59,268 bases of DNA from contig CAYVME010000002.1 in the NCBI GenBank assembly GCA_964452415.1, positions 1 through 59,268 on the forward strand, written 5' to 3'. The notes under the pieces were generated by a model, which saw only the letters and a list, made by a program, of their open reading frames with translations, did no database searches and was not told the origin of the DNA. The position numbers and the translations under genes are program-made. Of the stretch, positions 4,772-40,343 are shown piece by piece. The stretch's first letter is position 1, and every line of letters starts with the position of its first letter. Source of the DNA: an uncultured Bdellovibrionales bacterium. Its GTDB lineage: Bacteria > Patescibacteriota > Minisyncoccia > Moranbacterales > GWC2-37-73.

Positions 4772-4887
4772 TTGTCAGTTCAATTATTTTCCTTTTTGGC
4801 CCATATGCAACGAGAGTGAATCGGAGCTTTTGGATATTGGGCATTCATCCAAAAGCGTGCCAGAAATAAAGATAATTGAACTGACAA
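4772..4887. repeat. Conserved structured intergenic element, copy A
   Basis: Three nested helices: an outer 16-bp inverted repeat (4772-4787 / 4872-4887), a middle helix (4793-4800 / 4859-4866) and an inner hairpin (4826-4856). The core is near-identical to copies at 6210-6398 and 8115-8211. Confidence 0.8.
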
Positions 4888-4906
4888 TCCACAGGCAAAG
4901 CAAAAG

Positions 4907-22647: not shown

Positions 22648-24156
22648 ATGAAAAAACAATCAGTAGTTTCATCAATACTCTGGCTCACAATTGCGGAAGT
22701 GTTTTTCAATCTTTCGGGCTACATCATTCATTCAAGCCTTGGAAGAATGCTTGGACCTGCTGACTATGGAAGATACGCCCTCATTATAACCCTGACCACG
22801 ATGGTGATCATGCTCATTGGTAATGGAATCCCAACTGCAATGAGCAAATATCTCAGCGAAATTTTTGAAACAAAACCAGATTTGGTTTTCGTGATCAAAA
22901 AACAAGCCGCAATTCTGCAATTCTCACTTATTGGAATTGTCACTTTGGCATTCTATCTCCTTGCGCCGGTCATCGCCGTTCTTTTGGGCGATCCATCTCT
23001 GACCCCACTGCTCAAAATTTCAACTTTCATCATTCCATCATATGCAGCTGCTTCTTTCTATCTCTACTATTACATCGGCATTCATCGCTTCTCCATGCAA
23101 TCAACCATGAAGATTATTCGCTCTTTTGCTCGCATCGGTTTCGTGCTTTGGCTGGCATATCTCTTCAAACTCAAAGGCTCAATCGCATCATACATTCTTT
23201 CTCCTGCTCCAGTTTTCCTGATTGCATTTCTCGTGGACAAATTTTGGATAAACAAACAATTTCCAAAAAAATCAATTCACACTTTTGATTGGAAAAAACT
23301 CTTGAATTATGCCTGGCCAGTGACGCTCTTTATGCTTTTTTATGAAATGCTGATTTCTTTGGATTTGTACATGGTCAAAGCTTTGCTTCACGATGATGCC
23401 TTGACTGGAATTTACAACGCTTCACTGACGGTTGGACGCATTCCCTATTATCTTTTCTATGCACTTACCATGGTGATGTTGCCGTCAATTTCACGCACAA
23501 CTTCTCAAAATGATCACACCGAAACAAATCGAATCATCAGTCAAACTTTTCGCATAATGATAATGCTTCTTTTTCCTTTGACCATTGCCATGATTGCCTA
23601 TGCTTCGCCATTGGTATCTCTCTTTTTTGGCTCAAAATTTGCCTTGGCCGCACTCTCAACGCAAATATTAACATTTGGCGTTGCATTCCTCACCGTTTTC
23701 TATGTTATGTGTTTTGCGCTCAATGGCGCAGGCATGGTCTTCATCCCAATGTACATCTCACTTTTCGGAATGATTCTAAATGGCGTCCTGAATTATTTTT
23801 TGGTTTTGAAATATGGAATCACAGGAAGCGCCATTGCCACCTCAATCACAGCGATTGTCATCACAATCATAATTCTTTTTTTCATTCACAAGCACTTCAA
23901 AGGATTAATGCGAATTAAAAGTTTCTTGAAATTTTTCCTGGCTGGAACCGTGATGACACTGGCATCATTTCTTTTTCCCGCACACAATTTGCTCTTCATC
24001 CTCTGGAGCTTTGTTTTGACCGGAATCTACATCATGGCTTTATACTTTCTGGGAGAATTCACCAAGAAAGATATCTCTCTTTTTCACCACATGCTTTTTT
24101 CCCGAAAGAAAAAAGCATCCCCTGCTTCCCCAGAAGATGCCAACCAATTAAATTAA
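22648..24156 (+). CDS. wzx: Wzx-type oligosaccharide flippase (MOP superfamily polysaccharide biosynthesis protein)
   Basis: 502-aa ORF with about 14 hydrophobic helices. Its N-terminal region is typical of polysaccharide flippases. Confidence 0.7.
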   Translation: MKKQSVVSSILWLTIAEVFFNLSGYIIHSSLGRMLGPADYGRYALIITLTTMVIMLIGNGIPTAMSKYLSEIFETKPDLVFVIKKQAAILQFSLIGIVTLAFYLLAPVIAVLLGDPSLTPLLKISTFIIPSYAAASFYLYYYIGIHRFSMQSTMKIIRSFARIGFVLWLAYLFKLKGSIASYILSPAPVFLIAFLVDKFWINKQFPKKSIHTFDWKKLLNYAWPVTLFMLFYEMLISLDLYMVKALLHDDALTGIYNASLTVGRIPYYLFYALTMVMLPSISRTTSQNDHTETNRIISQTFRIMIMLLFPLTIAMIAYASPLVSLFFGSKFALAALSTQILTFGVAFLTVFYVMCFALNGAGMVFIPMYISLFGMILNGVLNYFLVLKYGITGSAIATSITAIVITIIILFFIHKHFKGLMRIKSFLKFFLAGTVMTLASFLFPAHNLLFILWSFVLTGIYIMALYFLGEFTKKDISLFHHMLFSRKKKASPASPEDANQLN

Positions 24157-24194: not shown

Positions 24195-25742
24195 CTACTT
24201 CTTTTCCCGCTTAAAAATCACCACATCTCCGAACTTTTTATCGACCATAAATTCCTTTTTGATCAAGGCCAAGGCTTCCTTGTCGAAACTCCCACTGTTC
24301 TTTTCGAAAACTCCCCAAACTGTATCATTTTCCGACATTATCCTCTCAAGCTCGGCAAGGCTTATTTTTTGATGAGCCTTGAGATCATGGGCGATCAGCC
24401 CTGCCCTAGCATAATAAAAATTACGGAAATTTCTGGTTATCAAGGCGTCTCCCCTTGAAGAATTTTTAGTAAGATAAGCAAAAGCCTCTCTGTAATCATC
24501 CTTTTCGTCAATCTGGGAATAAATACCCTGACTGAAAAATAACTTATTATAATCAGGCAAGGCTAGCAAGAAAAAAGTTACCGTGAGCATAAAGAAAAAT
24601 TTCTTGCTGGACAGAGAATTTTCTTGGACAAATTTAGCAATATAATAGATACCGGAAGCAAGCAAAATTATTCCAAATGGCATTGCAAAATAAATAAATC
24701 GCAGTCCATATCCGAATTTCAAAACAAACGTCATGGCTCCCACAATGCCAAAGAAAGATGCCAGCAACCACAATCCCTTCTTACTGCCCTCTTCATTATT
24801 CTTTATTAAAAAATAAGATCCGATACATATTAGAGCATACGCCACAAAAGGATTAACATAGTCACTCACTGCTCCCAATATATATCTGGAATTAAATCTG
24901 AAAAACTCAATCGATCCTTGATAATAGCTATCCTTAAAAAAGTTTATGCTTCCATTTTTGTAACTTATTATTTCTGGGAATAATAACATTGTGGAAATAA
25001 ATGCAAGCATTGAGGCAACAACGAAGAAAACATACTTATTCTTCCAGGAATGCTCCTGTTTAAAAATAAAAAGAGCTTTCATCAGACAATACAACAGAAA
25101 CACTCCACCAATAACCACAGTCAAAAGATGCAGATTAAAAGACAAGGTAAAAACAATAAAAACAAAAGGTGCCCAGAAGAAGTTAAAGCCCGTCTTTCTT
25201 TTCAGGTATTCAATACTTTCCCAATCTTTTCCTGTTTTCCCCTCAAAAAACAGAAACACGAGCCAAGACAAAAGCAAGAAGATTGGAAATAACATGGCAT
25301 ACATTCTCAAGGTTCTATCAATTGTTATTCCTGCAATACTTATTGAGAATAAAAAAGAAGAAATCAAGCCCACAGCATTTTTGCCAGTGAAATATCTCCC
25401 TGCGAAATACACCAACACGATACTTACAACACCCCAGAAAACACTCACGGTTCTGGCAACAAAAATAGTAGGATCAAAAAAATTAAACAATTGACTAACT
25501 TGAATCTTATACATCCAAGCCCTGTTGTCTCGAGGGGCAAACAGACTATCGTTAACCATCTGACTGTTGAAATCCCAAGCTTTCCACTGTCCGGTCATGT
25601 GATAGCCAAAGGAGGAATTGATATCCAAAAATTCATCCGTGGTCAATGGCAATGCATCAAGTTTATACAATCGAAGAAAAAGCCCCAAAAGCACTATGGA
25701 AATCAAAATTAACAAGGATTTCTTATTGATCATACTTTTCAT
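24195..25742 (-). CDS. GT-C fold membrane glycosyltransferase (ArnT/PMT-like), tandem paralog 3 of 3
   Basis: First-loop DE motif (LTTDEFLD), the arm ARTVSVFWGVVSIVLVYFAGRYF, and a C-terminal soluble domain. I trimmed the start to ATG 25742, 1 nt after the upstream stop. Confidence 0.75.
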   Translation of the reverse strand: MKSMINKKSLLILISIVLLGLFLRLYKLDALPLTTDEFLDINSSFGYHMTGQWKAWDFNSQMVNDSLFAPRDNRAWMYKIQVSQLFNFFDPTIFVARTVSVFWGVVSIVLVYFAGRYFTGKNAVGLISSFLFSISIAGITIDRTLRMYAMLFPIFLLLSWLVFLFFEGKTGKDWESIEYLKRKTGFNFFWAPFVFIVFTLSFNLHLLTVVIGGVFLLYCLMKALFIFKQEHSWKNKYVFFVVASMLAFISTMLLFPEIISYKNGSINFFKDSYYQGSIEFFRFNSRYILGAVSDYVNPFVAYALICIGSYFLIKNNEEGSKKGLWLLASFFGIVGAMTFVLKFGYGLRFIYFAMPFGIILLASGIYYIAKFVQENSLSSKKFFFMLTVTFFLLALPDYNKLFFSQGIYSQIDEKDDYREAFAYLTKNSSRGDALITRNFRNFYYARAGLIAHDLKAHQKISLAELERIMSENDTVWGVFEKNSGSFDKEALALIKKEFMVDKKFGDVVIFKREKK

Positions 25743-25743
25743 G

Positions 25744-27300
25744 CTAATTGTTATTCCAATAATAAACCATTCCCTCTCCCTTAATCTCCTTGCTTTCTTT
25801 TTTTTCAAAATTATCTTCAATATATTCCAAGACTCCCTTTTTTAAAAAGGCATTATCCTTTTCGGGTATAACTATCCAACCCGACTTATTCTCTGATCTT
25901 ATTTTGTTCAAATAATCCTTAGAAATAAGTTTGTTTTGCAGATTAAATTCACCTCCAAAATCATAAACTTCAAGATTCAAATCTGAAAAATAATAATTCC
26001 TATATTCCCTCGTTATTAAAACATCTCCTGCCTGAGCATTTTTTTTGACATATTCAAAAACACTGCGATAATCAAGTTCATCCCTAACTGGATTGTCATC
26101 ATAAATGCCTTCATCCGATGAAAGAAATTTCCAATTTGGAATAAGCACTAGCATCACCAACAAAGAAAGATAAAATATTTTCTCTTTATTTATTTTGAAA
26201 TTATTTCTCAAGCAATCCGCAACATAAAAAATCCCAGAGGCCAACAATGTCATTTCAAAGGATCTTGCAATAAAAATATAGCGATCAAAAGGACCAACGC
26301 TCCAAACAAATATTGCAAGAAAAATAATCACAAGATACGACAAAGCCATCCAGAGAGCTCTCTTTGATAGGAATCTTTTTTCATCATTAAACATCATATA
26401 AGAACCATAAGCCATTAAGACCAAAGCAACTGAAAAGAAAGAATAATTATCCGACAAACGATTCACATAGGCATAGTTGCTTTCAAATATTTCAAAGATA
26501 CCAGAATTACCGATAATGATTTGAGGAAAATAAAAATATACAACCAAATAAGCAACAAACATGGTCGCTACTGCCACCACATATTTGTTGAAAAATGATT
26601 TCGTTTTGAAATAAACAAAAATCACCTGCGTCAAACAATACACAAAAAAAACAGGAGCAATGTCAACCACTAGTGGTTGCAAGTGATATCCAAGCAGGCC
26701 AAACAAAAAAGTTGGCAAAATCCACACAGGATTTACAATTATCTTTTCCTGTATCAATTTAATGATACCAATCTTTCCTGCATATTTTTCCTCCCACAAC
26801 ATATACACAGACCATGAAAAAGCCACAAAAACCGGGAAAAACATGGCGTACATTCTGAGCATGCGATCAAGAACGATTGCTGAAACACTAACGGAAAACA
26901 AAAATGCGCTCAGAAGCCCGATAGTCTTATTTTTTGTAAAATAAGTCGAAAAGAAATACATCAACACAATTGAAATAACTCCCCAAAAAATACTGACCAA
27001 ACGAGCAACTGATTCTGCGGGAGGAAAAATTTTGAAAAGTTGTGCCACTTGCCATCTGTAAATCCAACTTCTCTCGTTTCTTGATTTTTTGATGTCTTCT
27101 GTCAAATTTTCATCAACTGCAACCGCATCAGTCTTGAAATCCCAAGCTTTCCATTGCCCAGTTTGGTGAAAACCATATGCGGCAGCCACATCAAAGAATT
27201 CATCGCCAGCGAAAGACTTCTCTCCCAGATTATATGCGCGCAAAAAAAATCCAAGAACAACGATCGCAAAGAGTATCGAAAATATTTTTTTATTGTTCAT
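25744..27300 (-). CDS. GT-C fold membrane glycosyltransferase (ArnT/PMT-like), tandem paralog 2 of 3
   Basis: FAGDEFFD and ARLVSIFWGVISIVLMYFFSTYF. It is collinear with its neighbours. I trimmed the start to ATG 27300. Confidence 0.75.
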   Translation of the reverse strand: MNNKKIFSILFAIVVLGFFLRAYNLGEKSFAGDEFFDVAAAYGFHQTGQWKAWDFKTDAVAVDENLTEDIKKSRNERSWIYRWQVAQLFKIFPPAESVARLVSIFWGVISIVLMYFFSTYFTKNKTIGLLSAFLFSVSVSAIVLDRMLRMYAMFFPVFVAFSWSVYMLWEEKYAGKIGIIKLIQEKIIVNPVWILPTFLFGLLGYHLQPLVVDIAPVFFVYCLTQVIFVYFKTKSFFNKYVVAVATMFVAYLVVYFYFPQIIIGNSGIFEIFESNYAYVNRLSDNYSFFSVALVLMAYGSYMMFNDEKRFLSKRALWMALSYLVIIFLAIFVWSVGPFDRYIFIARSFEMTLLASGIFYVADCLRNNFKINKEKIFYLSLLVMLVLIPNWKFLSSDEGIYDDNPVRDELDYRSVFEYVKKNAQAGDVLITREYRNYYFSDLNLEVYDFGGEFNLQNKLISKDYLNKIRSENKSGWIVIPEKDNAFLKKGVLEYIEDNFEKKESKEIKGEGMVYYWNNN

Positions 27301-27310
27301 TTTTATATAT

Positions 27311-28858
27311 TCACTTCCCCCAAGTGTAGACAACCACCCATTTGGAAAAAGATTTATCACTGACTCTGGTCAAATTATTTTTCAGATATTCCCTGCCGGC
27401 CTTGCAAACATAGTTGTTATCGATATTGGGCAAAACAATCCAGCCACTCTTGTTCTCAGCTATAATTTGCCCAAACAACTTGTCACAATTCGGACTTTTG
27501 AAAGAATATCTTTGACTTTTTATGCCATAGGTTTTGAAGTTTGCTCCCGACCAATAAAAACTCCTATAAGCCCTGGTCACGATAACATCTTCCGGACTGG
27601 AATTTGGCAAAATATAAGCAAAAACATCTCGAAAATCTGCATACGCAGAATTCTTGTTGGCCACATACATCGATTTTTCACCCTTGAAATAACTGAAGTC
27701 AAGAACAAATAGCATCAAAATCAATCCTGCGATGATGATCATTTTTTTGTAAGCCTTGAAATGATCCATGAAAAATCGCAATATTGCCACAATACCAACT
27801 GCTGACAATATGGCCACAAAAGATTGAATAAAATACACATATCTGTGAGCAGGCGTTCTGTTCCAAATAAAAATTGAACTCAAAAGAGGAAGCGCCAAGG
27901 AAATGAAAAGAAACAGTGATTCTTTTGGACGCTTTAATTTTTTTGCCAGATACCAAGCACCGATCAAAACAAAAAATATGCCAACCCAGGGATATGTTGT
28001 GTCTGAAAAAACATTCCCGATATAACTATAATCATCAGAAAAGAAACTGACCTGTTTGTCGAGATATTTATAAAAGTTACCAAAAAATAATTTCACCCCA
28101 ATAAAACTTCCCAGTGCGCCAAAAATTATTATGGTGTGAACATTGATTATTTTTTGAATCAGTGGTTTTTTTCTGATAAACCATATTGACCTGATCAAAG
28201 AATATGCAACGACAGTGAAGCCGACATTTAATGTCGCCAAATGAATGTCTGCACTGATAAGCCCAAAAATCAAAACACCCCACAAGTATGATGGATTGAA
28301 ACCAAGAAATTCGTGAAGCTTCTCAAAGTAGAAATTCTTTCCCCTATATTTAGCTTCATAAAATTTATAGATAAACCAAGACAGAATCAAATAAACAGGA
28401 TACAGCATGGAATACATCCTAAGCCTTCTTCCGAAAATAATGCCAGATTCTCCAACTGCCACCAAAAAAGCTGCCAAAAGCGCAATATAAATATCCCCCG
28501 TAAATGAAAATGCCACCAAGAAGACCACAACCACTCCCAATGTCCCCCAAAAGGCACTCAAGGATCGCATTAGCGTCTCCGAAGGCTCAAAGAAATGATA
28601 CAGTTGAGCCAATTGCCAACGATACACCTCGGCTCTTTCATTACTGGAACTGTCTTGCAAATCCTCATCAAAAGGTTTTCCCATATTGAAATCCCAGGCC
28701 ACGAAATCTCCAGTTTTAAAATATCCATAAGAAGTATTGGCCTCAAAAAATTCATCCCTGTCCAGCGCTGTCACTCCGAGATTATAAAAACGCAGAATTC
28801 CGCCCAAAAGAACAATAATTACCAAAGAAATGATGACTAATTTTTTTTCATTTAACAT
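27311..28858 (-). CDS. GT-C fold membrane glycosyltransferase (ArnT/PMT-like), tandem paralog 1 of 3
   Basis: LDRDEFFE and MRSLSAFWGTLGVVVVFLVAFSF. It has the same architecture as the two downstream paralogs. Confidence 0.75.
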   Translation of the reverse strand: MLNEKKLVIISLVIIVLLGGILRFYNLGVTALDRDEFFEANTSYGYFKTGDFVAWDFNMGKPFDEDLQDSSSNERAEVYRWQLAQLYHFFEPSETLMRSLSAFWGTLGVVVVFLVAFSFTGDIYIALLAAFLVAVGESGIIFGRRLRMYSMLYPVYLILSWFIYKFYEAKYRGKNFYFEKLHEFLGFNPSYLWGVLIFGLISADIHLATLNVGFTVVAYSLIRSIWFIRKKPLIQKIINVHTIIIFGALGSFIGVKLFFGNFYKYLDKQVSFFSDDYSYIGNVFSDTTYPWVGIFFVLIGAWYLAKKLKRPKESLFLFISLALPLLSSIFIWNRTPAHRYVYFIQSFVAILSAVGIVAILRFFMDHFKAYKKMIIIAGLILMLFVLDFSYFKGEKSMYVANKNSAYADFRDVFAYILPNSSPEDVIVTRAYRSFYWSGANFKTYGIKSQRYSFKSPNCDKLFGQIIAENKSGWIVLPNIDNNYVCKAGREYLKNNLTRVSDKSFSKWVVVYTWGK

Positions 28859-28916: not shown

Positions 28917-30296
28917 ATGATATCAAAAATTAAGAAATTTGTAAAATTGATAAATAGGTTAAAAATATACTTCCTCGCAAAGAAAGAACGCCTCTTTTAC
29001 ATGAATTTTTTCAAATTTTCCAATAATCCACCTCACCCAAAGAAAAGAGTCCTCACTACCTTGTCAATTATCATTTTTTCCTTTCTCTTGATCTGCATTG
29101 GGACATTGTATTACCTGGGGTATTTCAAAAAAGTTAGCGACGGCTTTCCCGAAACCATTGAGTACTTGCACTCTCTGCCAAAAGCAGAAAAACTCTACAT
29201 ATGGTCAAATAGCGAAAATTTTTGCAAACTGTTCAATGGCAAATGCGTTTGGGGAAATAGCATTCCCGAATATTCAGAATTCGACTATTTTGTCTTTTTT
29301 GTAAATCAAGACAAAAGCGTCCTCACCAACGATGGAAAATATTCAGATTTCAAAAAATATGCATCCGAAAAAATAGTTGTCAAAAAGAGAAGCAATCTGG
29401 TGACAAAAGCTGAAATAGTTAGTCATTTGGATATTCCTTCCGAGCTTATTCCGCCACCATCAGAATTTACTTTTGCCATTATCGGTGATTCTCAACGATG
29501 GAAACAACGCGACTTGGAAACAAGTCAATTCTATTCAATTCTAGGAAATATAAAGAAGATTAAGCCCGACTTCCTCTTGGCCATGGGAGATTTGACGCCT
29601 GACTACGCTTGTCCAGATGCAACAGCAACTTGTCGCGCTCATTACGAAAAATGGAAAAGTGAGATTGAAAAATATGTCCCAATCATATATCCTGCAATGG
29701 GAAACCATGATGAAGCAAACAAAGGAAGATTATTTTATAAGGATGTTTTTTCTCTGCCAAACAATGGCCCCGTCGGTTCTGACGCCATGGCATATTCATT
29801 AAATTACAAGAATTCACTTTTTGTCTTTTTTGATGATTTTTATGAATCAGAAGAAAAAAAACTTACAACAAGCTTTCAAAAACAAACTGATTGGCTAAAT
29901 CAAAATCTTAAAAATACCACAAGGAGAAACATTTTTTTTGTAGCTCATGCTCCAAGTTTCAACAGAGCAGAACCCATAAACACTCCCCGTTGGAAGAATC
30001 TTTTTGAAAATAATGTCTTTGCAACCTTTGCTGGTCACACCCACGTTTTCTGTCAAAGAACTGCCACGGCTGAAGAATTTGAAGCTGGGAATGGAGAATT
30101 ACATCATTTTATCATTGGAAATTCAGGCTCCATGAATCATCCTTTCCCGCCGGATTGTGAAAAAAAATATCAAGGTCCCCACTTTGCCATTGTGAAAATA
30201 AAAGGATCAGAAATGCAAATAACTATCCACGATTTCAGGGGCAACGAAATAGCAAAAACAATTGTTAACAACGAAAATTATTATCTGAGCAAATAA
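28917..30296 (+). CDS. Membrane-anchored calcineurin-like (purple-acid-phosphatase-like) metallophosphoesterase, paralog 1
   Basis: One TM helix, an N-terminal module (YLHSLPKAEKLYIWSN...FDYFVFF), then metallophosphoesterase motifs (IIGDSQ, GDLT, GNHD, HAP, GHTH). The start could alternatively be 29001. Confidence 0.8.
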   Translation: MISKIKKFVKLINRLKIYFLAKKERLFYMNFFKFSNNPPHPKKRVLTTLSIIIFSFLLICIGTLYYLGYFKKVSDGFPETIEYLHSLPKAEKLYIWSNSENFCKLFNGKCVWGNSIPEYSEFDYFVFFVNQDKSVLTNDGKYSDFKKYASEKIVVKKRSNLVTKAEIVSHLDIPSELIPPPSEFTFAIIGDSQRWKQRDLETSQFYSILGNIKKIKPDFLLAMGDLTPDYACPDATATCRAHYEKWKSEIEKYVPIIYPAMGNHDEANKGRLFYKDVFSLPNNGPVGSDAMAYSLNYKNSLFVFFDDFYESEEKKLTTSFQKQTDWLNQNLKNTTRRNIFFVAHAPSFNRAEPINTPRWKNLFENNVFATFAGHTHVFCQRTATAEEFEAGNGELHHFIIGNSGSMNHPFPPDCEKKYQGPHFAIVKIKGSEMQITIHDFRGNEIAKTIVNNENYYLSK

Positions 30297-30306
30297 GAAC
30301 AGTCCT

Positions 30307-31671
30307 ATGAAAAATAAGATTATTGCGGTTATAAAAAAACATCTCAAGAGATTTATTAGCCTGAAAAGTGTGCGGGTTAGAATTGATAAAATGCTTGAAA
30401 TAATCACTGCCATTCCGAGAAAGCATCCCGTATCTTTTCTTTTGCGATTGCCAATTCTATTTTTATCTGTTTGCGCATTGCTAATAATCGCGACACTTTT
30501 TAATCTGGATAAAAAGAATGATGGCTCCCAAGAAACTGCAACATATCTGAACAACCTGCCTGGAAACGAAAATGCAGTTATTTGGTCAAACAAAAAAAAT
30601 CTTTGCGAAAAATATCAACACACCTGTTATTGGGGTTCTGAGTTGCCAAAAGACACTGATATCGACTATCTTGTGTTTTTCATGAACCAAGCTGATGAAT
30701 CTGACATGGATAATGGTGATTTTTCACATCTAACAAATTTTTCAAATCCCACAAAAGAAATAAGTCGAGAAAATTTCTTCTTTGATTCCAAAAAATCAAG
30801 GATGCTTGAAGCTAAAAATATTCCGCAAAATCTTCTCCCCAACGCCCCGGAGTTTTCTTTCGCAATTCTTGGAGATTCGCAAAATTGGCCCAACAGTCCA
30901 ATTCAAAATGCGCAATTTGAAAGGATTATAGACAAAGTGAAAGATCTCAATCCTGATTTCATTTTATCAGTCGGAGATCTGACAAGTCTTGCGGGTTGCG
31001 TGAATGCCCAGACATGCCTGCCCTATTTCCAGAAATGGAAAGACCGAGTCAATCAAGCAAGCCCCAATGTGTATCCAGCAATTGGCAATCACGATTTCGA
31101 AAAGGGCGGTATGCGAATTTGGCAAACACTCTTTGAAACACCAAAAAATGGGCCCCTGGATCTCAAAGGAACTGTTTTTTCATTTGACTACAAAAATTCA
31201 CATTTTGTTTTTCTCAACAGTGAACTGTTCGAAGAAAGAAATGAGAACTCAACTCAATTCAACTGGCTGACACAAGATTTGAAAAACAACACAAAACAAA
31301 ACACATTTGCAATTTCACACCGTCCTGATTTTCCAAATGCATCATTCCCACAAATGCACAAATGGAAAACACTATCAGATGGCAAAACTTTGGCTTATTT
31401 TTCTGGACACATCCACACCCATTGCTACAGACAGATCGCATCATCAGATGTGGCTTCTTCAGCCAACTGGACAATCAATCATTTCATCATAGGCAACTCA
31501 GGGTCAAAAACAACAAATGCCCAAGCCAATTGCATGCAAGAAACAAGAAAGGCTCATTTTGCAATAGCCAAAGTTAAAGGAAGCAATCTCAACATCCAAA
31601 CATACGACTCCGAGGGAAACAAATTATTCGAAAACGATATTGATAACAATAAATACTACGATCCGAAATAG
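30307..31671 (+). CDS. Membrane-anchored calcineurin-like metallophosphoesterase, paralog 2
   Basis: Same architecture as paralog 1: YLNNLPGNENAVIWSN...IDYLVFF, then ILGDSQ, GDLT, GNHD, HRP and GHIH. Confidence 0.8.
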   Translation: MKNKIIAVIKKHLKRFISLKSVRVRIDKMLEIITAIPRKHPVSFLLRLPILFLSVCALLIIATLFNLDKKNDGSQETATYLNNLPGNENAVIWSNKKNLCEKYQHTCYWGSELPKDTDIDYLVFFMNQADESDMDNGDFSHLTNFSNPTKEISRENFFFDSKKSRMLEAKNIPQNLLPNAPEFSFAILGDSQNWPNSPIQNAQFERIIDKVKDLNPDFILSVGDLTSLAGCVNAQTCLPYFQKWKDRVNQASPNVYPAIGNHDFEKGGMRIWQTLFETPKNGPLDLKGTVFSFDYKNSHFVFLNSELFEERNENSTQFNWLTQDLKNNTKQNTFAISHRPDFPNASFPQMHKWKTLSDGKTLAYFSGHIHTHCYRQIASSDVASSANWTINHFIIGNSGSKTTNAQANCMQETRKAHFAIAKVKGSNLNIQTYDSEGNKLFENDIDNNKYYDPK

Positions 31672-31684
31672 CACTTCGGAAAAA

Positions 31685-32338
31685 TTATTCAAGATTAATA
31701 ACCTCGTAATTCAAATCAAATCTGTTGGTTAATCCTTGAATGGCTTGATATTTTATTCCGCCATATTCTCTTTTCCAGAAATCGCCATGCCTGTGGCCTG
31801 AAAAAACATAATCCACTTTATATTTCTTGAAAACATCATTTATTTTTTTACAATCCTTGAGCACACCATCTGTTCCATATTTAAAAACAGGATAGTGCAT
31901 AAAAATCGCCACTTTCTTGTCTCCATATCCATTTAATTGCTTCTTGGGCCAATTTACATCACCCTTACCGCAATTTTTGTAATCAACAATGACAATTCTC
32001 CAATCTTCCTTATTAAAAGAATAATGCTTTGATCCACCAACCTGAAGCTTTTTGTCGTGATTTCCGTTGGCCCAATATACATCTCTTCCAGCAGTCATTT
32101 CTTTCAACTGCGTGGCGTATTTTTTCTCTCCTCTTTCTGTGTTATCACCCAAAGTAACAATGATTCCCTTTGTTTTATTCAAAACTTCCTGAAATGCCGT
32201 CTTCCATCTTGGAACACAAACAAAGTCGCCACATCTATTTGTACCTCCGGCATGAATATCCGCAACCACATTCAAGGTTAATGCTTTTCCCGGAAGAGGA
32301 AAAAGCAAAATCAACACCAAAACAATTATATTTTTCAT
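31685..32338 (-). CDS. Secreted calcineurin-like metallophosphoesterase
   Basis: 217-aa ORF with a signal peptide (MKNIIVLVLILLFPLPGKA) and motifs ADIHAGG, GDN, GNHD, MHYP and GHRH. Confidence 0.8.
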   Translation of the reverse strand: MKNIIVLVLILLFPLPGKALTLNVVADIHAGGTNRCGDFVCVPRWKTAFQEVLNKTKGIIVTLGDNTERGEKKYATQLKEMTAGRDVYWANGNHDKKLQVGGSKHYSFNKEDWRIVIVDYKNCGKGDVNWPKKQLNGYGDKKVAIFMHYPVFKYGTDGVLKDCKKINDVFKKYKVDYVFSGHRHGDFWKREYGGIKYQAIQGLTNRFDLNYEVINLE

Positions 32339-32420
32339 AGAAATATACTTTACAGATGCCTTTATATTTATTATAGTTTTATTATATTAATTATATCTCA
32401 TTATAACTCAAAATAAAATT

Positions 32421-34304
32421 ATGGCCAAATTGAACTTTTTCAGAAAAATCCGATTTTACATAAAAAATAAACCGAAACTCATACCCATAACCTTTCTTTT
32501 TGGAATAGTATATCTGATTTATTTTTCATTTAGCTTTAACCATATTTCAGAATTTATAACGGCGGATGAACATTTTTGGGTAAACCAAAGAATATATACC
32601 TATTGGAACAGTGTTTTTAGTCCTGACAAATGGTCCAAAACAAAGCTGAGCGACAAACCAGGAGTCACAGTGGCATTGGTTTCAGGAGTGGGACTGTTAA
32701 AAGAAAGCAACCCCTACAAGACAATCAAGGATGCTGCCTCCGACAACATCAACGAACCCTTGGTGATAAAATCAGTCTACACAACATTTCGCATTCCTTT
32801 TGTTTTTTTCACGGCATTCTTTTCCATTTTTCTTTTTTGGATAACCAAAAAATTAACCGGGGATTTCTGGATTGCCTTTTGGTCATTCTCTTTGATGCTT
32901 CTTTCGCCCACTCTTTTGGGAATTTCTCAAATCACAAACGCTGATGCAGTCATGTGGTCCTTTTCATGCGCAACTCTGTTGTCATTTCTTGCCTATCTAA
33001 AAACAGAGGAGAAAAAAATCTTAATTCTTTCGCCGATTTTTCTGGGTCTTTCATTGCTGACAAAACTGGTAAGTGTCATTTTCTTTCCATTTTTGCTTCT
33101 TGTGGCTTTGTTGTTCATGATTGAAAAATTTGATGATTGGAAAAAAGATGGCACAGATGTCAGCAAGAAAATAACGATGGCACTGACTGCCTTTTTAATA
33201 ACCTTTCTGGGATCCCTTGTTGTTTTTTCCGTCTTTATGCCGGCAGTTTTCACTGATATCCAAATATTCCTTGAATACACCATCGGTTTTTCAGTAATGA
33301 AATACATTGTTCCGTTGATTCTTTTGTTTGTGACAACAATGTTGTTGGATGCTTGGAGACTTAAAAGCTTTTTAGCGATCAAGATTCTTGAGATTCTCAC
33401 ACCACGCAAAAATCTCATTTACAAATCAATTCCAATAATGCTTTTAGCATTTTTCGTCTTAACCATTCTGAACTGGAATTTGGGGCAATTCCTCCTTGAC
33501 CCAGAAAATGTTCTCAATCGCAACAGGGCAGAATTGCATTTCCTGTCCCGATATGCCCTGCATGAAAATCTGCTATATCAATTTTATCCGCTTGTGTTCT
33601 CGCTGACACCAATAGCGCTTATTTCCATTTTGTTTCTCTGGTCAAAATTCATTTTCAAAAACATCAAGGAGAGATTTTTGGTTTTGATCCTTTCTTTGTT
33701 TATATTGGTTTTCCTGGCAGCTTTGGTTGCTCTTGATATGCCTGCAATTATAAGATACATCATCGCTCTCTATCCCATATCTCTCATTTTGGCCAGCATA
33801 GGAATCAAGGAGTTATCAGAAAGCAAAAAATTCGCAAAAATAAGCAAGTTCCACATATCCCTCGTTCTTATTTTGTTCAGCTTTGCCAGTCTTTGGGCGA
33901 TAAAACCTTTCTATTTTAACTACACCAGCAATCTACTACCAAAGGAATATTCAATCGCATACGCCTGGGGTTATGGAGGCTACGAGGCTGCTCAATTCAT
34001 GAATTCATTGCCAAATGCTGAAAATCTCACTGTTTGGTCAGATTATTATGGTTTTCGAAATTTTTTCATTGGAACAACAACTACCGATTACATTCCCAAA
34101 AAAGGATCTGCGCCTATTGACTACTATATTTTAACAAAACAAGGACAAATAAAATATGATTACTGGTGCAATAAAGCCAAGAACTCTTGCGCGAAGAAAT
34201 ATGTTCCAGCTGGAAAATATTACACCAAAGAAAATCCGCTTTGGGAAATAAACATAGATGAGCGTCCGAATAATTTTATCAAAATTTATAAATCCGAAGA
34301 GTAA
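32421..34304 (+). CDS. GT-C fold membrane glycosyltransferase (ArnT/PMT-like), paralog A
   Basis: First-loop DE (ITADEHFW), KPGVTVALVSGVGLL, FRIPFVFFTAFFSIFLFWITKKL, and a C-terminal module (YEAAQFMNSLPNAENLTVWSD...IDYYIL). Confidence 0.75.
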   Translation: MAKLNFFRKIRFYIKNKPKLIPITFLFGIVYLIYFSFSFNHISEFITADEHFWVNQRIYTYWNSVFSPDKWSKTKLSDKPGVTVALVSGVGLLKESNPYKTIKDAASDNINEPLVIKSVYTTFRIPFVFFTAFFSIFLFWITKKLTGDFWIAFWSFSLMLLSPTLLGISQITNADAVMWSFSCATLLSFLAYLKTEEKKILILSPIFLGLSLLTKLVSVIFFPFLLLVALLFMIEKFDDWKKDGTDVSKKITMALTAFLITFLGSLVVFSVFMPAVFTDIQIFLEYTIGFSVMKYIVPLILLFVTTMLLDAWRLKSFLAIKILEILTPRKNLIYKSIPIMLLAFFVLTILNWNLGQFLLDPENVLNRNRAELHFLSRYALHENLLYQFYPLVFSLTPIALISILFLWSKFIFKNIKERFLVLILSLFILVFLAALVALDMPAIIRYIIALYPISLILASIGIKELSESKKFAKISKFHISLVLILFSFASLWAIKPFYFNYTSNLLPKEYSIAYAWGYGGYEAAQFMNSLPNAENLTVWSDYYGFRNFFIGTTTTDYIPKKGSAPIDYYILTKQGQIKYDYWCNKAKNSCAKKYVPAGKYYTKENPLWEINIDERPNNFIKIYKSEE

Positions 34305-34325
34305 TCTCTAAACAAAATTCCAACC

Positions 34326-36197
34326 ATGAAAAAATTCTCATTCATGCTTTTGCAAAATAAAAAAGCCAAAATAACACTGCTCTTTTTATTATCCTTGATC
34401 ATGTATTTTTCGTTCGGCTTCAATCATATTGGAAAATTTTCCACTGTCGATGAATTGCATTGGCTCTATGATCGCATTCCGCAATATTGGAAAGGCGTAA
34501 CTCAACAAAAATGGAAATTGACATACATTCATGAAAAACCAGGCATAACACTTGCCATAGTATCAGGAACAGGACTTCTTGAATTTGACAATCCATTAAA
34601 ATACGAAAAGCAAAACAATCCAGGAAAAACAAAGGAGACCATGTCCATGGAGAATTTTTACACAGCATTCAGACTTCCAATTTTGATCTTTAATGGTCTT
34701 TTTTCAATATTCTTCTTTTGGGTGATGAGGAAAATAACAAGGGATTCATGGATATCTCTTTGGTCATCAATATTAATTCTTTCCTCCCCGATTCTTCTTG
34801 GAATGACTCAGATGGTCAATTCAGATGCTCTTCTTTGGACATTCACCACTGCAACCATCCTCTCCTTTGTGGCACTGCTGAAAACATCCGAAAAAAAATT
34901 AGCCTTTCTGACAGCTCTTTTTCTTGGTCTTTCAGTTTTGACAAAATTCACTTCCGTAATCCTGATGCCGTTTCTCTTCGTTATTTCTTTCATCTTTTAT
35001 TTCGAAAAAATAAAAGATTGGCAAAAAAACAATAACGACTCGTCCAGAGAGATAATGAAAATATCCCTGAACTATCTTTCAATTATTCTTGGATCGATAG
35101 TCGTTTTTGCACTGTTGATGCCTGCAAGCATAATAAAACCAAAATATCTATACGAAGGAACAATAGGCTATCCAGGCATGGAATTTGTTCTTTGGCCTAT
35201 TCTTGGAATTCAAATTCTCATAATTATTGATGGCCTCATTTCCAAAAACAAAATAACCATAAACATAATAGCTTTTTTGCAAAAAATTTGGGAAAAATAT
35301 TCAAAAATAATCCAAATTTCATTATCCTTCTCTTTTATTTTGCTTTTGGTTAACTATGCTTTCGGTTCTGACTTCTTGGGCTTTGAAAAAATTCCTTTCG
35401 ATGCATACCAGGAGCCCATTTTCTATCAGCAAAATTGGCTGAAAAAGATGCTACTCGAATTCAGGCCTATAATTTTCTCCCTGACACCACTTGTCCTTTT
35501 TTCTGTGATATATGTTTGGATTAAATCAATCTTCAAACCAATCAAAGAAAATGTTCTGGTTGCCACCATATCCCTATTTTTCTTGATTTTCTGCGCAGCC
35601 GTAATTCAAGAGAAACTCTTAAACATAATCCGCTACAGCATAATAATATATCCACTGATGTCTGTTTTGGCTGCAATCGGGATAAGTGAACTACTCTCCG
35701 GCAAGAAAAATGAAAAAATAAGCAAAACATTTGTCACCATTATCATAATAGCCATAAGTTTTGTCAGTCTCTGGCAAATAAAGCCTTTCTATTTAAATTA
35801 CACAAGTGACCTACTCCCCAAGAAATATGTCATAACTGACGCCTGGGGATATGGAGGCTATGAAGCTGCACAATATCTCAACTCACTCCCTGACGCGGCA
35901 AATAAGAGTGTCTGGAGCGATAGCACCGGAGTTTGCGAATTTTTCATAGGCACATGCAGGAAATCAAAATGCGAATTTCAAGATGACAGCACAAAATTTG
36001 ACTATTTGGTTTTCAGCAGAAGAGGAGAAATTCTCTTTTCCAGAGAAGCTCTCACAGTCAAAAGCAGGCTCTGCAACCAAAACAAGGATATCTACGACAC
36101 CATTAGTAAAGGATATTCAAGCAAAGACAAAGCGATTTTCAATTTATCAATAGATGGAAGGCCAGCAAATTCAATCACAGTAGTAGAGGCGAGATAA
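34326..36197 (+). CDS. GT-C fold membrane glycosyltransferase (ArnT/PMT-like), paralog B
   Basis: STVDELHW, KPGITLAIVSGTGLL, and a C-terminal module (YEAAQYLNSLPDAANKSVWSD...FDYLVF). It is collinear with paralog A. Confidence 0.75.
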   Translation: MKKFSFMLLQNKKAKITLLFLLSLIMYFSFGFNHIGKFSTVDELHWLYDRIPQYWKGVTQQKWKLTYIHEKPGITLAIVSGTGLLEFDNPLKYEKQNNPGKTKETMSMENFYTAFRLPILIFNGLFSIFFFWVMRKITRDSWISLWSSILILSSPILLGMTQMVNSDALLWTFTTATILSFVALLKTSEKKLAFLTALFLGLSVLTKFTSVILMPFLFVISFIFYFEKIKDWQKNNNDSSREIMKISLNYLSIILGSIVVFALLMPASIIKPKYLYEGTIGYPGMEFVLWPILGIQILIIIDGLISKNKITINIIAFLQKIWEKYSKIIQISLSFSFILLLVNYAFGSDFLGFEKIPFDAYQEPIFYQQNWLKKMLLEFRPIIFSLTPLVLFSVIYVWIKSIFKPIKENVLVATISLFFLIFCAAVIQEKLLNIIRYSIIIYPLMSVLAAIGISELLSGKKNEKISKTFVTIIIIAISFVSLWQIKPFYLNYTSDLLPKKYVITDAWGYGGYEAAQYLNSLPDAANKSVWSDSTGVCEFFIGTCRKSKCEFQDDSTKFDYLVFSRRGEILFSREALTVKSRLCNQNKDIYDTISKGYSSKDKAIFNLSIDGRPANSITVVEAR

Positions 36198-36273: not shown

Positions 36274-38370
36274 CTAACTTGAAATATCATTTTCCTTTTT
36301 CTCTTGAAGATAAAAAGGCAGGGCAAAAAAACTGACGAACATCTGAATCACGCGTCCAAAAATTGCAATCGAAATTACAGCTTCTCCACTAACACCAAAC
36401 ATCCCAAAGAAAGTAAGGTAAGCCCACTCTTTGATGCCAATATTTCCAATACTGATGGGTATTGCAGAAACGATACTAACAATAGAAATAGCCACAATAA
36501 ATTCCGAAAAACCAATGTTGATGTGCAAATCCTGAAACAACATCCAAGTTGCCATGCCAACACCAATGAAATTATAGATTGCGCCCAACATTATCGTCTT
36601 GCCCAATATCTTATAATCCTTTCTGTATGTTCGGATATCCTGAAGCAAATCAATGACAGTCTTTGGCACAAAACGGACAACATGCCCCCAAATTGGCAAC
36701 ATACGCAACACAAACAAAAAGACTTCGACGCAAAGAGATGCAATAATAATCAAATTTATGGCCAACAAAATGGGATTCTGAATAACAGTATTAATATTGA
36801 ACAAACTAAAAACGAGTATCAAAACCATGACTCCGATAAACCCAGTTATCCTGTCCACCAAAACAGTGGAGGTCGCTTCCAAATATTTTCCACCATCAGA
36901 CTTCCCCATTCTATATGCGCGATAGGTGTCACCGCCAACGATTGAAGGGAAAAAATTATTAATGAATGTGCCCGTCAAATAAACCATGAAAACATCATAA
37001 AAATTTGTTTTTATCTTCTTAAAATCAAGAAATATTTTCCACTTATAAGATGACATTACAACACCAAAAGTATAAATGGCAGCAAAAGCAACCGCCCACC
37101 AAATGTCAATTTGACGGAAATCAGACACAACACCTTGCCAACTAATTTTCTTCAATATCCAAGCAATAAAACCCAAGGCAATCAAAATTTTCACAAATAT
37201 TTTCATTTTGTTGTTTTTTTTCTTGATATTTTTCTTGGCTCCCAATAAATTGTCAAAAAGCTTCGCATATTCAACAGCAACATTCTTCCAACTCATTTTT
37301 TCCGCCAATTGTCTGCTTTCCTGTGAGGCAATCTCCCTGAGCTTATGGTCAGAAATGAAACCTTCAATCCCCTGCTCAATCTCACGCGCCGAACATTTTT
37401 CAATCAAGATTCCTTGTTTGCCAACAATCTCCGCAGCGCCAGTTCTCGTGGTGATCATTGGAAGACCAGAGGCCAATGCTTCCTGGGTTACATTGCCCAG
37501 AGCTTCATTAAGCGATGGCAAAACAAAGACATGCGACCGTTGATACACTTTGACAATTTCTTCATGCTTGACCACACCCAAAAATTCTATCTTTTCTTCC
37601 AGATTGTTGTCTTTCGCATACTGTTGGTATGTTTGGCTGAGTGGACCATCCCCAGCAACCAAAAGCCTTGCATTTGGATATTTCACCGAAAGAGACGAGA
37701 AGGCTTCCAGCAAAAAATTCAAACCTTTTCTCTCAATCAATCTTCCCACAAAAAGAATGTTGAAGGTTTTTTCCTTGGCCAAAATTTCCTCATTCGGACG
37801 AAATTCTTCAACATCAATTCCATTATACAAAACACTAATCTCCTGTTTTTTTGATGTTTTCCTCGCAATATCAATCAAATCATTGCTCAAAGCAACAACA
37901 GCATTCGCTTTTTTCCAAACAATTTTGCTCAAATATTTGAAAAATATCAAATCAATAATGAAAAAACGCTTACTGTAAAATGGAACATCGCTTCCACGAA
38001 GACTCACGATGTATGGCAACCCCAGACACATTGCAATAAATCCACATGGTATTCCAAAAAAAGCCAACGACAAATCATATTTTTCTTTCTTGGCCAATTT
38101 TCGCGCAAACCAATACGCCCGCCATGAATAAACAAGCAACTCCTTGTTGCTTTGATAATGCAATTTGTCGGGATTTTTTCCAATAGGAAGCTTGTGTATT
38201 TTCACATTATCACCAACAAGCTCCAAATGATATTTGTCATCAATCGAAGAAGTCACAAAATCTATTTCCAGATCCTTCATTTTTGAATACTCCCTTAGCA
38301 AATAAAATGAAGCATTGCCAGCTCCCCCTCCAAGAGGTGGGAATTCATAATTGAAAAATAATATTTTCAT
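36274..38370 (-). CDS. Fusion protein: N-terminal GT4 glycosyltransferase plus C-terminal LPG-synthase-TM / flippase-like (UPF0104-type) membrane domain
   Basis: 698-aa ORF. The GT4 part has MKILFFNYEFPPLGGGAGNASFYLL and NEALGNVTQEALASGLPMITT. The C-terminal ~310 aa are polytopic and carry FINNFFPSIVGGDTYRAYRM. Confidence 0.75.
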   Translation of the reverse strand: MKILFFNYEFPPLGGGAGNASFYLLREYSKMKDLEIDFVTSSIDDKYHLELVGDNVKIHKLPIGKNPDKLHYQSNKELLVYSWRAYWFARKLAKKEKYDLSLAFFGIPCGFIAMCLGLPYIVSLRGSDVPFYSKRFFIIDLIFFKYLSKIVWKKANAVVALSNDLIDIARKTSKKQEISVLYNGIDVEEFRPNEEILAKEKTFNILFVGRLIERKGLNFLLEAFSSLSVKYPNARLLVAGDGPLSQTYQQYAKDNNLEEKIEFLGVVKHEEIVKVYQRSHVFVLPSLNEALGNVTQEALASGLPMITTRTGAAEIVGKQGILIEKCSAREIEQGIEGFISDHKLREIASQESRQLAEKMSWKNVAVEYAKLFDNLLGAKKNIKKKNNKMKIFVKILIALGFIAWILKKISWQGVVSDFRQIDIWWAVAFAAIYTFGVVMSSYKWKIFLDFKKIKTNFYDVFMVYLTGTFINNFFPSIVGGDTYRAYRMGKSDGGKYLEATSTVLVDRITGFIGVMVLILVFSLFNINTVIQNPILLAINLIIIASLCVEVFLFVLRMLPIWGHVVRFVPKTVIDLLQDIRTYRKDYKILGKTIMLGAIYNFIGVGMATWMLFQDLHINIGFSEFIVAISIVSIVSAIPISIGNIGIKEWAYLTFFGMFGVSGEAVISIAIFGRVIQMFVSFFALPFYLQEKKENDISS

Positions 38371-39017: not shown

Positions 39018-40343
39018 TTACCTCCCTATCGAAAAATATTCAATCCCCAATTCTTTCATCTTTTTTGGTTCATACATCAAGCGACCATCAAAAATCATTG
39101 GTGTTTTCAAAAGTTTTTTGATTTGATCGAAATCTGGTGTGCGAAATTCTTTCCACTCAGTGATGATCAGGAGGGCGTCAGCATCTTTGAGTGCATCATA
39201 TTTATTTTCAAAATATGAAATTGCAAGATTTTCACCAAAATATTCTTCTCGCTGAGCCATTTGCATTGCTTCAGGATCATGCGCTTGAATTTTGGCTCCT
39301 CTTTTCACCAGCTCATTGATAATTGTGATTGCTGAAGATTCTCGCATGTCATCAGTCCCAGCTTTGAAAGCCAGCCCCCAAACTGCAAAAGTTTTTTCCT
39401 TCAAATCCTCGCCCAATTTTTCCACAACCATTTGCGACAAGACAAATTTCTGCTTCTCATTTGTATCCAAAGTTTGTTTCAACATCTCAGCATCATAACC
39501 AAAATCTTTGGCTGTTTTAATCAGAGCTTTCACATCTTTTGGGAAACATGATCCTCCGAATCCTGGACCAGCATACATGAAAGGCTCTCCAATTCTTGGA
39601 TCGGCGCCCATGGCTTTTCGCACATGGTCAAAATCAGCTCCCGCTTTTGAGCAAATGTTCGCCAAGTCATTATTCACAGAAATCTTTGCTGCCAAAAAAC
39701 AGTTCGAGGCATATTTCACAATTTCTGCAGTCTTGGCATCCATCGAAAAAAATCTTCCCTCTCGACGCATAAAAGGTTCATACAATTCTTGCATCGTCTG
39801 GGCGGTTTTGGCGTCATCGGTTCCCACCACCACGCGACTTGGCTCAAGAAAATCTTTAACCGCAGTTCCTTGTGCCAAAAACTCGGGATTGCTCACCACA
39901 TGAAATTCAATTTTTTCACCTCTCTTTTCCAACTCCTTGGAAATTTCCTTGGCCACCATTTCCGCTGTTCCAACTGGAACGGTTGATTTGTCCACAATGA
40001 TCAAAGGATGATCCATGAATTGCCCAATTGAAGTTGCCACACCCAAAACATGAGAAAGATCAGCGCTTCCATCTTCATTTGGAGGTGTTCCCACGGCAAT
40101 AAAAACGATGTCGCTTTTTTTGATCGCATCTTCAAAATTTGTTGTATATTCAAGAGTTTCATTTTTCAAATTTCTTGCCACCAACTCATCCAAGCCCTTT
40201 TCGTGAAGTGGCACTTTTCCACTTTTGAATTGCTCGACTTTTTTTGCATCCTTGTCCACACAAATAACCGTGTTCCCCATTTCTGCAAAACATGCTCCGG
40301 TCACAGAGCCAACATATCCAGTTCCAATAACACCAATTTTCAT
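39018..40343 (-). CDS. ugd: UDP-glucose 6-dehydrogenase
   Basis: 441-aa ORF with MKIGVIGTGYVGSVTGACFAEMGN and the catalytic motif GFGGSCFPKDV. Confidence 0.9.
   Translation of the reverse strand: MKIGVIGTGYVGSVTGACFAEMGNTVICVDKDAKKVEQFKSGKVPLHEKGLDELVARNLKNETLEYTTNFEDAIKKSDIVFIAVGTPPNEDGSADLSHVLGVATSIGQFMDHPLIIVDKSTVPVGTAEMVAKEISKELEKRGEKIEFHVVSNPEFLAQGTAVKDFLEPSRVVVGTDDAKTAQTMQELYEPFMRREGRFFSMDAKTAEIVKYASNCFLAAKISVNNDLANICSKAGADFDHVRKAMGADPRIGEPFMYAGPGFGGSCFPKDVKALIKTAKDFGYDAEMLKQTLDTNEKQKFVLSQMVVEKLGEDLKEKTFAVWGLAFKAGTDDMRESSAITIINELVKRGAKIQAHDPEAMQMAQREEYFGENLAISYFENKYDALKDADALLIITEWKEFRTPDFDQIKKLLKTPMIFDGRLMYEPKKMKELGIEYFSIGR

Follow-up and report, generated by a model that had tools for sequence, protein, structure and literature searches.

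A segment common to the C-termini of GT-C glycosyltransferases and the N-termini of membrane-anchored metallophosphoesterases in a surface-glycan island of Parcubacteria/Moranbacteria type

Why should a glycosyltransferase and a phosphoesterase, two quite different kinds of enzyme, carry the same stretch of about 50 residues? The question is raised by a window of 59,268 nucleotides (nt), by which we mean the whole stretch of DNA that was analysed, from contig CAYVME010000002.1 of assembly GCA_964452415.1 (an uncultured Bdellovibrionales bacterium). It is a 59-kb surface-glycan synthesis island from a low-GC genome that, by its closest database proteins, is of the Parcubacteria/Moranbacteria type. 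In this island two metallophosphoesterases with a single transmembrane (TM) helix, which resemble purple acid phosphatases (PAPs) and are here called MPE1 and MPE2, lie upstream of two GT-C glycosyltransferases, GT-C A and GT-C B, and a preliminary description of the sequence had proposed that all four share a module. The four segments it quoted are indeed present in the open reading frames (ORFs), at the positions given. Our best explanation, to which we give a probability of roughly 0.8, is that a piece of the GT-C C-terminal domain became joined once to a PAP-like phosphoesterase, and that this fusion survives in one lineage and is represented by a separate gene in that of the window. The genes and segments concerned are these:

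28917..30296, plus strand: MPE1, a single-TM PAP-like metallophosphoesterase of 459 aa (Pfam Metallophos, E 7e-12).
28830, plus strand: opening of the MPE1 ORF; the database protein P0134, to which MPE1 is identical, begins at M30 (nt 28917).
29151..29297, plus strand: module copy of MPE1, residues 79-127, ETIEYLHSLP...FDYFVF.
30307..31671, plus strand: MPE2, a single-TM PAP-like metallophosphoesterase of 454 aa (Pfam Metallophos, E 1.4e-12).
30532..30678, plus strand: module copy of MPE2, residues 76-124, ETATYLNNLP...IDYLVF.
30526-30810, plus strand: N-terminal alpha/beta domain of MPE2, residues ~74-168, of which the module is the first half.
31685..32338, minus strand: small secreted-type metallophosphoesterase of 217 aa (Pfam Metallophos), with a signal-peptide-like N-terminus and without the module.
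32421..34304, plus strand: GT-C A, a PMT/PMT_2-type glycosyltransferase of 627 aa (Pfam PMT and PMT_2).
33984..34133, plus strand: module of GT-C A, residues 522-571, without the Cys pair.
34326..36197, plus strand: GT-C B, a PMT/PMT_2-type glycosyltransferase of 623 aa (Pfam PMT and PMT_2).
35862..36014, plus strand: module of GT-C B, residues 513-563.
35856-36188, plus strand: C-terminal, predicted extracytoplasmic domain of GT-C B, residues ~511-621, of which the module is the first half.

The module is homologous in the two protein types, far beyond chance. With composition-adjusted statistics, BLASTP aligned MPE2 with GT-C B at an E value of 4e-8 (41% identity over 59 aa) and MPE1 with GT-C B at 7e-7, and the corresponding values for GT-C A were 4e-4 (MPE2) and 6e-4 (MPE1). 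A hidden Markov model (HMM) was also built from GT-Cs only, using the C-terminal 200 residues of each of 119 foreign GT-C homologues and leaving out the sequences of the window and the phosphoesterases. This model scored MPE1 at 33.1-33.2 bits (conditional E 2e-11), MPE2 at 29.4 bits, the phosphoesterase orthologues of other genomes at 14-19 bits and GT-C A at 272.8 bits. Similarly, when the phosphoesterase N-terminal profile was aligned with the GT-C C-terminal profile by hhalign, the match had a probability of 97.1% (E 6e-11) over 49 columns, which correspond to MPE2 residues 76-124. In the opposite direction, a profile made from eight phosphoesterase modules only, searched exhaustively against 1.84 billion representative proteins (E <= 1e-3), found GT-C C-termini with E values down to 7.7e-6. 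The similarity noticed in the preliminary description is thus significant by BLASTP, HMM, hhalign and library-wide E values. At the DNA level, the module-coding segments of the four genes are 43-56% identical to one another.

The nature of the segment is clearest in the transferases. There it is the conserved first half of a ~110-residue C-terminal domain that follows the last TM helix and is found family-wide in these GT-Cs; the preliminary description had taken it for a discrete 50-residue targeting or substrate-recognition module, an interpretation that we replace with that of a partial domain which the phosphoesterases have through fusion or fission. It begins with a helix (YEAAQYLNSLP) and a strand (VWSD), after which come a Cys-x6-Cys loop and two more strands. 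Both transferases exceed the Pfam cut-offs for PMT and PMT_2 (22.7 and 26.1 bits), with 32.4 and 29.2 bits for GT-C A and 37.1 and 34.9 bits for GT-C B, and they are 42% identical to each other. GT-C B has 217 homologues, mostly in Parcubacteria/Moranbacteria, and a strict regular expression finds the module motif in the C-termini of 35 of the 120 GT-C homologues listed. Among 72 homologues, G510, E513 and F539 of the C-terminus are invariant and Y512, A514, A515, L518, N519, P522, W530 and D532 are nearly so; the same set shows an invariant D42 and a nearly invariant E43 in the stretch F38..D42 E43..W46..R50 after the first TM helix. From what is known of the family, we take this acidic motif of the first extracytoplasmic loop to be the catalytic Asp/Glu.

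The AlphaFold 2 (AF2) model of GT-C B (pLDDT 92.8, pTM 0.94) has ~13 long helices and, in its C-terminal part, a helix at 511-519, strands at 528-531, 543-546 and 560-564, helices at 565-602 and strands at 605-609 and 612-621. Foldseek matched this model to STT3, PglB, DPY19, ArnT and PMT/Pmt4 with a probability of 1.00, though the TM-scores were only 0.3-0.46. As in STT3/PglB/AglB and ArnT, whose C-terminal domains are periplasmic or lumenal, the GT-C fold continues past its last TM helix into a soluble alpha/beta domain, here predicted to lie on the outer face. However, a search of the PDB with the GT-C profile gave no sequence match to any solved structure, those of STT3/PglB/AglB and ArnT included. 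The C-terminal domain is not covered by any Pfam model, and NCBIfam gave nothing above its cut-offs; the analysis thereby defines a C-terminal domain, belonging to a large family of GT-Cs, that had not been described before. To our knowledge, there is no described case of a GT-C C-terminal domain that is common to a phosphoesterase. Two GT-C homologues, P0091 and P0130 (921 and 924 aa), carry ~300 extra C-terminal residues after the module-containing domain, with no Pfam match, and these may be further appended outer-face domains.

How a phosphoesterase could come to possess part of a transferase is illustrated by the best non-phosphoesterase match, P0135 (1050 aa), in which PMT_2 (residues 269-378), the module (668-718) and Metallophos (780-968) follow one another. 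Residues 187-766 of P0135 align with residues 30-622 of GT-C B, and so reach the last residues of the transferase (33% identity, E 2e-73), and residues 660-1049 align, as a single segment, with residues 66-452 of MPE2 (35% identity, E 2e-69). A complete GT-C C-terminal domain sits in P0135 where MPE2 has residues ~66-177. As the protein contains one module and no extra anchor helix, it represents a genuine fusion rather than the read-through product of two genes. It is encoded on contig L005 by a single uninterrupted ORF, whose neighbours include a PMT_2 gene and the gene for a homologue of the 515-aa protein of the window; the junction lies outside repeated sequence. The first 170 residues of P0135 (L005 nt 2961-3470) add about four predicted TM helices before the GT-C core, which GT-C A and GT-C B do not have. 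In a second protein, P0146 (1138 aa, on a 20.5-kb NCBI contig), a GH28 (polygalacturonase-like) glycoside hydrolase comes after a GT-C core of the same family with its C-terminal domain complete. Together, P0135 and P0146 indicate that the end of the GT-C C-terminal domain is a site where outer-face enzymes get appended.

The occurrence of the module is otherwise very restricted. Of the 24 matches returned by the exhaustive search, two are phosphoesterase clusters, one represented by P0002 and the other by P0134 (MPE1). Among the 22 others, 12 can be recognised as PMT/PMT_2 proteins; the remainder are shorter proteins or fragments to which no Pfam family could be assigned. These unassignable short sequences aside, no third type of protein with the module was found in the 1.84 billion. 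The module always lies directly after a TM helix and is always continued by the rest of a domain. By HMM, it was not detected in a 347-aa phosphoesterase of related genomes, in the small secreted phosphoesterase or in three paralogous membrane proteins of ~520 aa encoded in the window. Furthermore, a metagenome scan with an alignment of the catalytic domain gave only module-less relatives, and no further fusions, among the matches listed.

The catalytic domains point to a single origin of the arrangement. MPE2 is the orthologue of P0002-P0007 (~440 aa, from related Parcubacteria; 41-48% identity), and the module is kept in all six of these public sequences; in P0008-P0011, which are of this type too but more distant, there is just an anchor and a linker and no module. 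In a neighbour-joining tree of catalytic domains, with bootstrap support counted as splits, the module-less phosphoesterases separate from all the module-bearing ones at 100%, the standalone module-bearing proteins form a clade of their own, from which P0135 is excluded, at 99%, and MPE2 groups with P0002-P0007 at 100%, MPE1 being a deeper paralogue. These splits imply that the junction between module and phosphoesterase arose once. The adjacent paralogues had been presented as the GT-C counterparts of the phosphoesterase segments, but they are not the closest: the phosphoesterase-module HMM gives 9.6 bits for GT-C A, 27.1 bits for GT-C B and a median of 18.4 bits for the family of these neighbours, against 33-39 bits for the ‘KDMGDGSYE’ GT-C subfamily, which contains P0135. 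Judged by these scores, the source of the module is closest to that subfamily and not to the adjacent genes.

We propose the following history. A PAP-like metallophosphoesterase would have been joined once to the C-terminal end of the alpha/beta domain of a GT-C. The lineage of P0135 would retain the whole fusion, comprising GT-C core, C-terminal domain and phosphoesterase, and in the lineage of the window the phosphoesterase is a separate gene for a single membrane anchor, a GT-C-derived domain and the catalytic domain. This separate gene would later have been duplicated to give MPE1 and MPE2. The single TM helix of the phosphoesterases aligns positionally with the last GT-C helix. The locus illustrates clearly how a protein can inherit a domain when genes fuse or split.

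The module is predicted to lie outside the membrane in both contexts, as had been supposed from the outset. MPE1 has one TM helix (residues 45-63) preceded by a tail with 13 Lys+Arg against one Asp+Glu, and the N-terminal tails of the phosphoesterases in general contain 7-13 Lys+Arg and 0-2 Asp+Glu ahead of the single helix; by the positive-inside rule, the module and the catalytic domain of these enzymes are predicted to face outward. The C-terminal domains of STT3/PglB/ArnT-type GT-Cs lie on the non-cytoplasmic side, and by the match to that fold the GT-C copy is likewise predicted to be extracytoplasmic. All phosphoesterase modules, and 99 of 107 GT-C modules, contain two cysteines in the spacing Cys-x6/7-Cys, as would be expected of a disulfide formed outside the cytoplasm.

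All three phosphoesterases of the window score above the Pfam Metallophos cut-off (46.6, 48.9 and 47.8 bits; cut-off 21.5), and the five metal-binding motifs (GD, GD, GNHD, H and GHxH) are conserved, with D190, G223-D224, G260-N261-H262-D263, H338, G367-H368 and H370 invariant. Metal motif I reads GD-S-Q (MPE2 residues 190-193, nt 30874-30885, and the equivalent in MPE1) and GD-T-Q in relatives; many metallophosphoesterases have His at the position where Gln stands here. The AF2 model of MPE2 (pLDDT 88.4) contains helices at 74-82, 97-102 and 137-142 and strands at 91-94, 106-109, 121-125, 150-155 and 160-168. Its top PDB fold matches are purple acid phosphatases (1ute, TM 0.65, E 7e-13), PAP sequence profiles match the catalytic domain with E values down to 7e-10, and by both fold and sequence the domain is closest to these phosphatases and to acid-sphingomyelinase-like enzymes. 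The label ‘PAP-like’ of the preliminary description therefore holds at the level of the fold. However, the Fe(III)-binding tyrosine of the GDxxY motif of PAPs is replaced by Ser or Pro (GDLTS, GDLTP, GDLSS), so that MPE1 and MPE2 are PAP-like and not PAPs. Nor is the beta-sandwich of plant PAPs related to their N-terminal domain, and, unlike PAPs and acid-sphingomyelinase-like phosphodiesterases, they are membrane-anchored proteins of bacteria of the candidate phyla radiation. On one metagenome contig (L086, nt 4377-6157) the match to the catalytic domain covers 1.8 kb for 265 query residues and may represent two tandem phosphoesterase domains or genes.

Gene order also links the two enzyme types, the sequence of flippase, phosphoesterase and GT-C pair being kept in all four distinct relatives that have sufficient flanking DNA. 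In the related clusters L001/L006, L002/L003 and L004 the order starts with thymidylate kinase, a Wzx-type flippase, the module-bearing phosphoesterase (then the 347-aa phosphoesterase) and an LPG_synthase_TM protein, and it continues with two ~500-aa membrane proteins, the small phosphoesterase, two module-bearing GT-Cs, a GT4::LPG_synthase_TM protein and a UDP-glucose dehydrogenase. The module-bearing phosphoesterase gene is immediately downstream of the flippase gene in these relatives (L001-L004, L165, L167 and L168), and the shorter contigs agree in gene order as far as they extend. As controls we used loci encoding module-less relatives of the phosphoesterase, 78 from GTDB and 80 from metagenomes (among the matches listed), and this GT-C family was found near the phosphoesterase in none of the 158. 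Synteny and controls together show that the presence of the module in a phosphoesterase coincides with adjacency or fusion to module-bearing transferases. This is a Rosetta-stone pattern, consisting of a colinear fusion (on a single contig) and a conserved neighbourhood of the separate forms. The coupling of GT-C and phosphoesterase suggested previously is thus well supported as a functional one by fusion, synteny and control loci, and from these sequence comparisons the two very probably act together on the cell surface.

What the phosphoesterase does there can be outlined as a proposal. The anchor and the GT-C-derived domain would hold it at the outer surface of the membrane, in a geometry like that of the fusion, probably with a GT-C partner beside it, and it would hydrolyse a phosphate ester or anhydride made or used by the lipid-carrier-dependent glycan pathway of the island. 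The most plausible substrate appears to be polyprenyl diphosphate (polyprenyl-PP) or a glycan linked to polyprenyl (di)phosphate; a phosphodiester in a surface polymer is the main alternative, and a less likely one. We favour a carrier lipid because the phosphoesterase gene lies directly behind the flippase gene in the relatives, because membrane-proximal anchoring would be inherited from a lipid-carrier-dependent transferase, because of the Wzx/Wzy/LCP content of the island, and because there is a precedent in UpsH. In an island of the Wzx/Wzy/LCP type, polyprenyl-PP has to be set free on the outer side of the membrane.

UpsH (YpbG) of Bacillus subtilis, reported in 2025, is a single-TM metallophosphoesterase that acts as an undecaprenyl-pyrophosphate sugar hydrolase and frees undecaprenyl phosphate from UndPP-linked polymers at the cytoplasmic face, where its catalytic domain was located by protease protection (PMC11898649). 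It shares with MPE1 and MPE2 the single-TM anchor and the metallophosphoesterase type, and offers a functional precedent for their possible role. However, UpsH is of the COG1408 type and the comparison with the PAP-like MPE1 and MPE2 is made at the superfamily level; its catalytic domain is cytoplasmic whereas theirs is predicted to face outward; and, unlike them, it is without a GT-C-derived domain and unlinked to any GT-C gene. The island also resembles three-component systems of extracytoplasmic glycosylation, which consist of a GT2 polyprenyl-P-sugar synthase, a flippase and a GT-C, as it too has GT2s, a flippase-type protein and several GT-Cs. This combination is the general logic of lipid-carrier-dependent glycosylation at the outer face. 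We know of no phosphoesterase in such systems as described. Unlike them, the island ties a PAP-like enzyme to the GT-C genetically and, in one lineage, physically.

Our searches of the literature for a link between GT-Cs and PAP-like phosphoesterases found no published description. GT-Cs with a C-terminal domain on the outer face, metallophosphoesterases with a membrane anchor and the inheritance of domains through gene fusion are each of a kind already known; new are this particular domain and the genetic and physical link between GT-C and PAP-like phosphoesterase. Bacteria of the candidate phyla radiation have many GT-Cs with uncharacterised substrates and partners, and a link backed by a fusion gives a testable hypothesis, namely phosphate hydrolysis at the surface on a lipid-carrier-linked intermediate or a phosphoglycan. 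The importance of the finding is limited by the size of the phosphoesterase clade, with two clusters among the 1.84 billion representatives.

Several observations weigh against the proposed history and role or narrow them. The P0135 fusion is known from one 6.1-kb contig and one sequencing run, and a chimeric assembly is possible. The detectable sequence similarity is confined to ~50 residues, the first half of the domain; downstream of the DY[LF]VF strand, in its second half, hhalign gave no profile signal (probability 0.4%). The MPE2 and GT-C B models have an equal order of secondary-structure elements after the anchor or last helix, but the alignment behind the MPE2 model contained GT-C fragments, and the agreement is therefore not independent evidence. 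The direction of events may be either fission of a fusion or a later merger, the single fusion sequence being compatible with both. The GT-C family is widespread whereas very few genomes have the module-bearing phosphoesterase (one of 185,579 GTDB species in a pattern scan), which is thus not a general partner of these transferases. Finally, the donors of PMT/ArnT-type GT-Cs are monophosphate-linked, and the carrier is set free as polyprenyl phosphate, for which no phosphatase is needed.

Other explanations must be set against these same data. It might be supposed that a segment of only ~50 residues, in an AT-rich genome of biased composition, reflects chance or the compositional bias of membrane-proximal sequences, but we regard this as having a negligible probability and have rejected it, given composition-adjusted BLASTP values down to 4e-8, a profile score of 33 bits, the hhalign and library E values (6e-11 and 7.7e-6) and the colinearity of P0135 with both proteins. 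Local copying of the segment between neighbouring phosphoesterase and GT-C genes, by a recent gene conversion or recombination, would suit the presence of all four genes within 7.3 kb and the fact that the phosphoesterases of the window outscore their relatives on the GT-C profile (33 and 29 against 14-19 bits). It is nevertheless very improbable, and as a recent event in the window it is ruled out by the low DNA identity of the module-coding segments (43-56%); moreover, the module is present in all the orthologues of other genomes, and the best GT-C matches are in another subfamily.

The two remaining alternatives concern the module itself. One would make it a mobile domain, complete in itself, that serves targeting or substrate recognition and was taken up independently by different extracytoplasmic enzymes for a common ligand; it is well conserved in both contexts, Cys pair included, and the GH28 fusion P0146 shows that the region tolerates different partners. 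Yet in the whole library it occurs only at GT-C C-termini or after the single TM helix of one monophyletic phosphoesterase clade, GH28 and phosphoesterase alike were added after a complete GT-C domain without the module having moved alone, and the catalytic-domain tree indicates one acquisition, all of which makes this reading decidedly unlikely. The other is a more specific version of our own explanation, in which the GT-C-derived domain is a docking device that binds the GT-C core or its C-terminal domain and so rebuilds the fusion complex in trans. P0135 shows that both catalytic parts can work in one polypeptide, the phosphoesterase genes are strictly adjacent to two module-bearing GT-C genes, and the membrane-proximal placement has been kept after a TM helix that aligns to the last GT-C helix. 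However, GT-C A and GT-C B keep complete C-terminal domains, so that no site is obviously vacant, and the phosphoesterase module is more like a different GT-C subfamily than like its neighbours; we therefore put docking forward tentatively, as a possibility with the odds somewhat against it. More speculative still, and in our view rather unlikely, is a single machine at the outer face made up of GT-C and phosphoesterase, which would be joined covalently in P0135 and, in the window, docked by way of the GT-C-derived domain. It would couple transfer from a polyprenyl-diphosphate donor to hydrolysis of the polyprenyl diphosphate set free or to the proofreading, by hydrolysis, of stalled lipid-linked glycans. 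If true, this would be a route of carrier-lipid recycling by a metallophosphoesterase instead of BacA/UppP or PAP2 enzymes.

The rest of the island is that of a surface-glycan pathway. It encodes an LCP transferase, two Wzy_C proteins, a Wzx/MurJ-type flippase and many GT2 and GT4 enzymes, together with two UDP-glucose dehydrogenases, sugar epimerases/dehydratases and a pyruvyl transferase. The features nearest to the genes discussed above are:

22648..24156, plus strand: Wzx/MurJ-type flippase (Pfam Polysacc_synt and MurJ).
24195-25820, 25744-27360 and 27311-28858, minus strand: three membrane proteins of ~520 aa, paralogous to one another and at most GT-C-like; as listed, the ends of the ORFs overlap.
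36274..38370, minus strand: GT4 glycosyltransferase fused to an LPG_synthase_TM (flippase-like) domain (Pfam), adjoining the GT-C pair downstream.

The small phosphoesterase between the two gene pairs, noted previously for its signal peptide, is confirmed by Pfam as a Metallophos protein with a signal-peptide-like N-terminus, and it is 57-64% identical to orthologues at the same position in L002 and L004. The ~520-aa paralogues belong to no Pfam family and show one weak, sub-threshold PMT_2 match; they are 30-37% identical among themselves, and identities of 30-47% are found when the proteins of L002 and L005 are included. They have their own, different C-terminal soluble part, and orthologues are present in every related cluster and beside the fusion gene in L005. 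The GT4::LPG_synthase_TM protein has the same architecture and position in L001, L002 and L004, and the relatives additionally encode a standalone LPG_synthase_TM gene.

Some minor observations concern the flanks of the cluster. Within the glycan cluster, the flippase gene is directly preceded by genes for an RtcB RNA ligase (20410-21879, plus strand) and thymidylate kinase (21876-22466, plus strand), an arrangement that is kept in L001, L002 and L004. A 644-aa membrane protein (17008-18942, plus strand) with a sub-threshold DUF1616 match is a member of the island conserved in relatives, where its orthologues are listed as DUF1616/DUF6541. Finally, two UDP-glucose/GDP-mannose dehydrogenase genes (13106-14386, plus strand, and 39018-40343, minus strand) flank the core cluster, as they do in L001, which suggests a uronic-acid-containing polymer.

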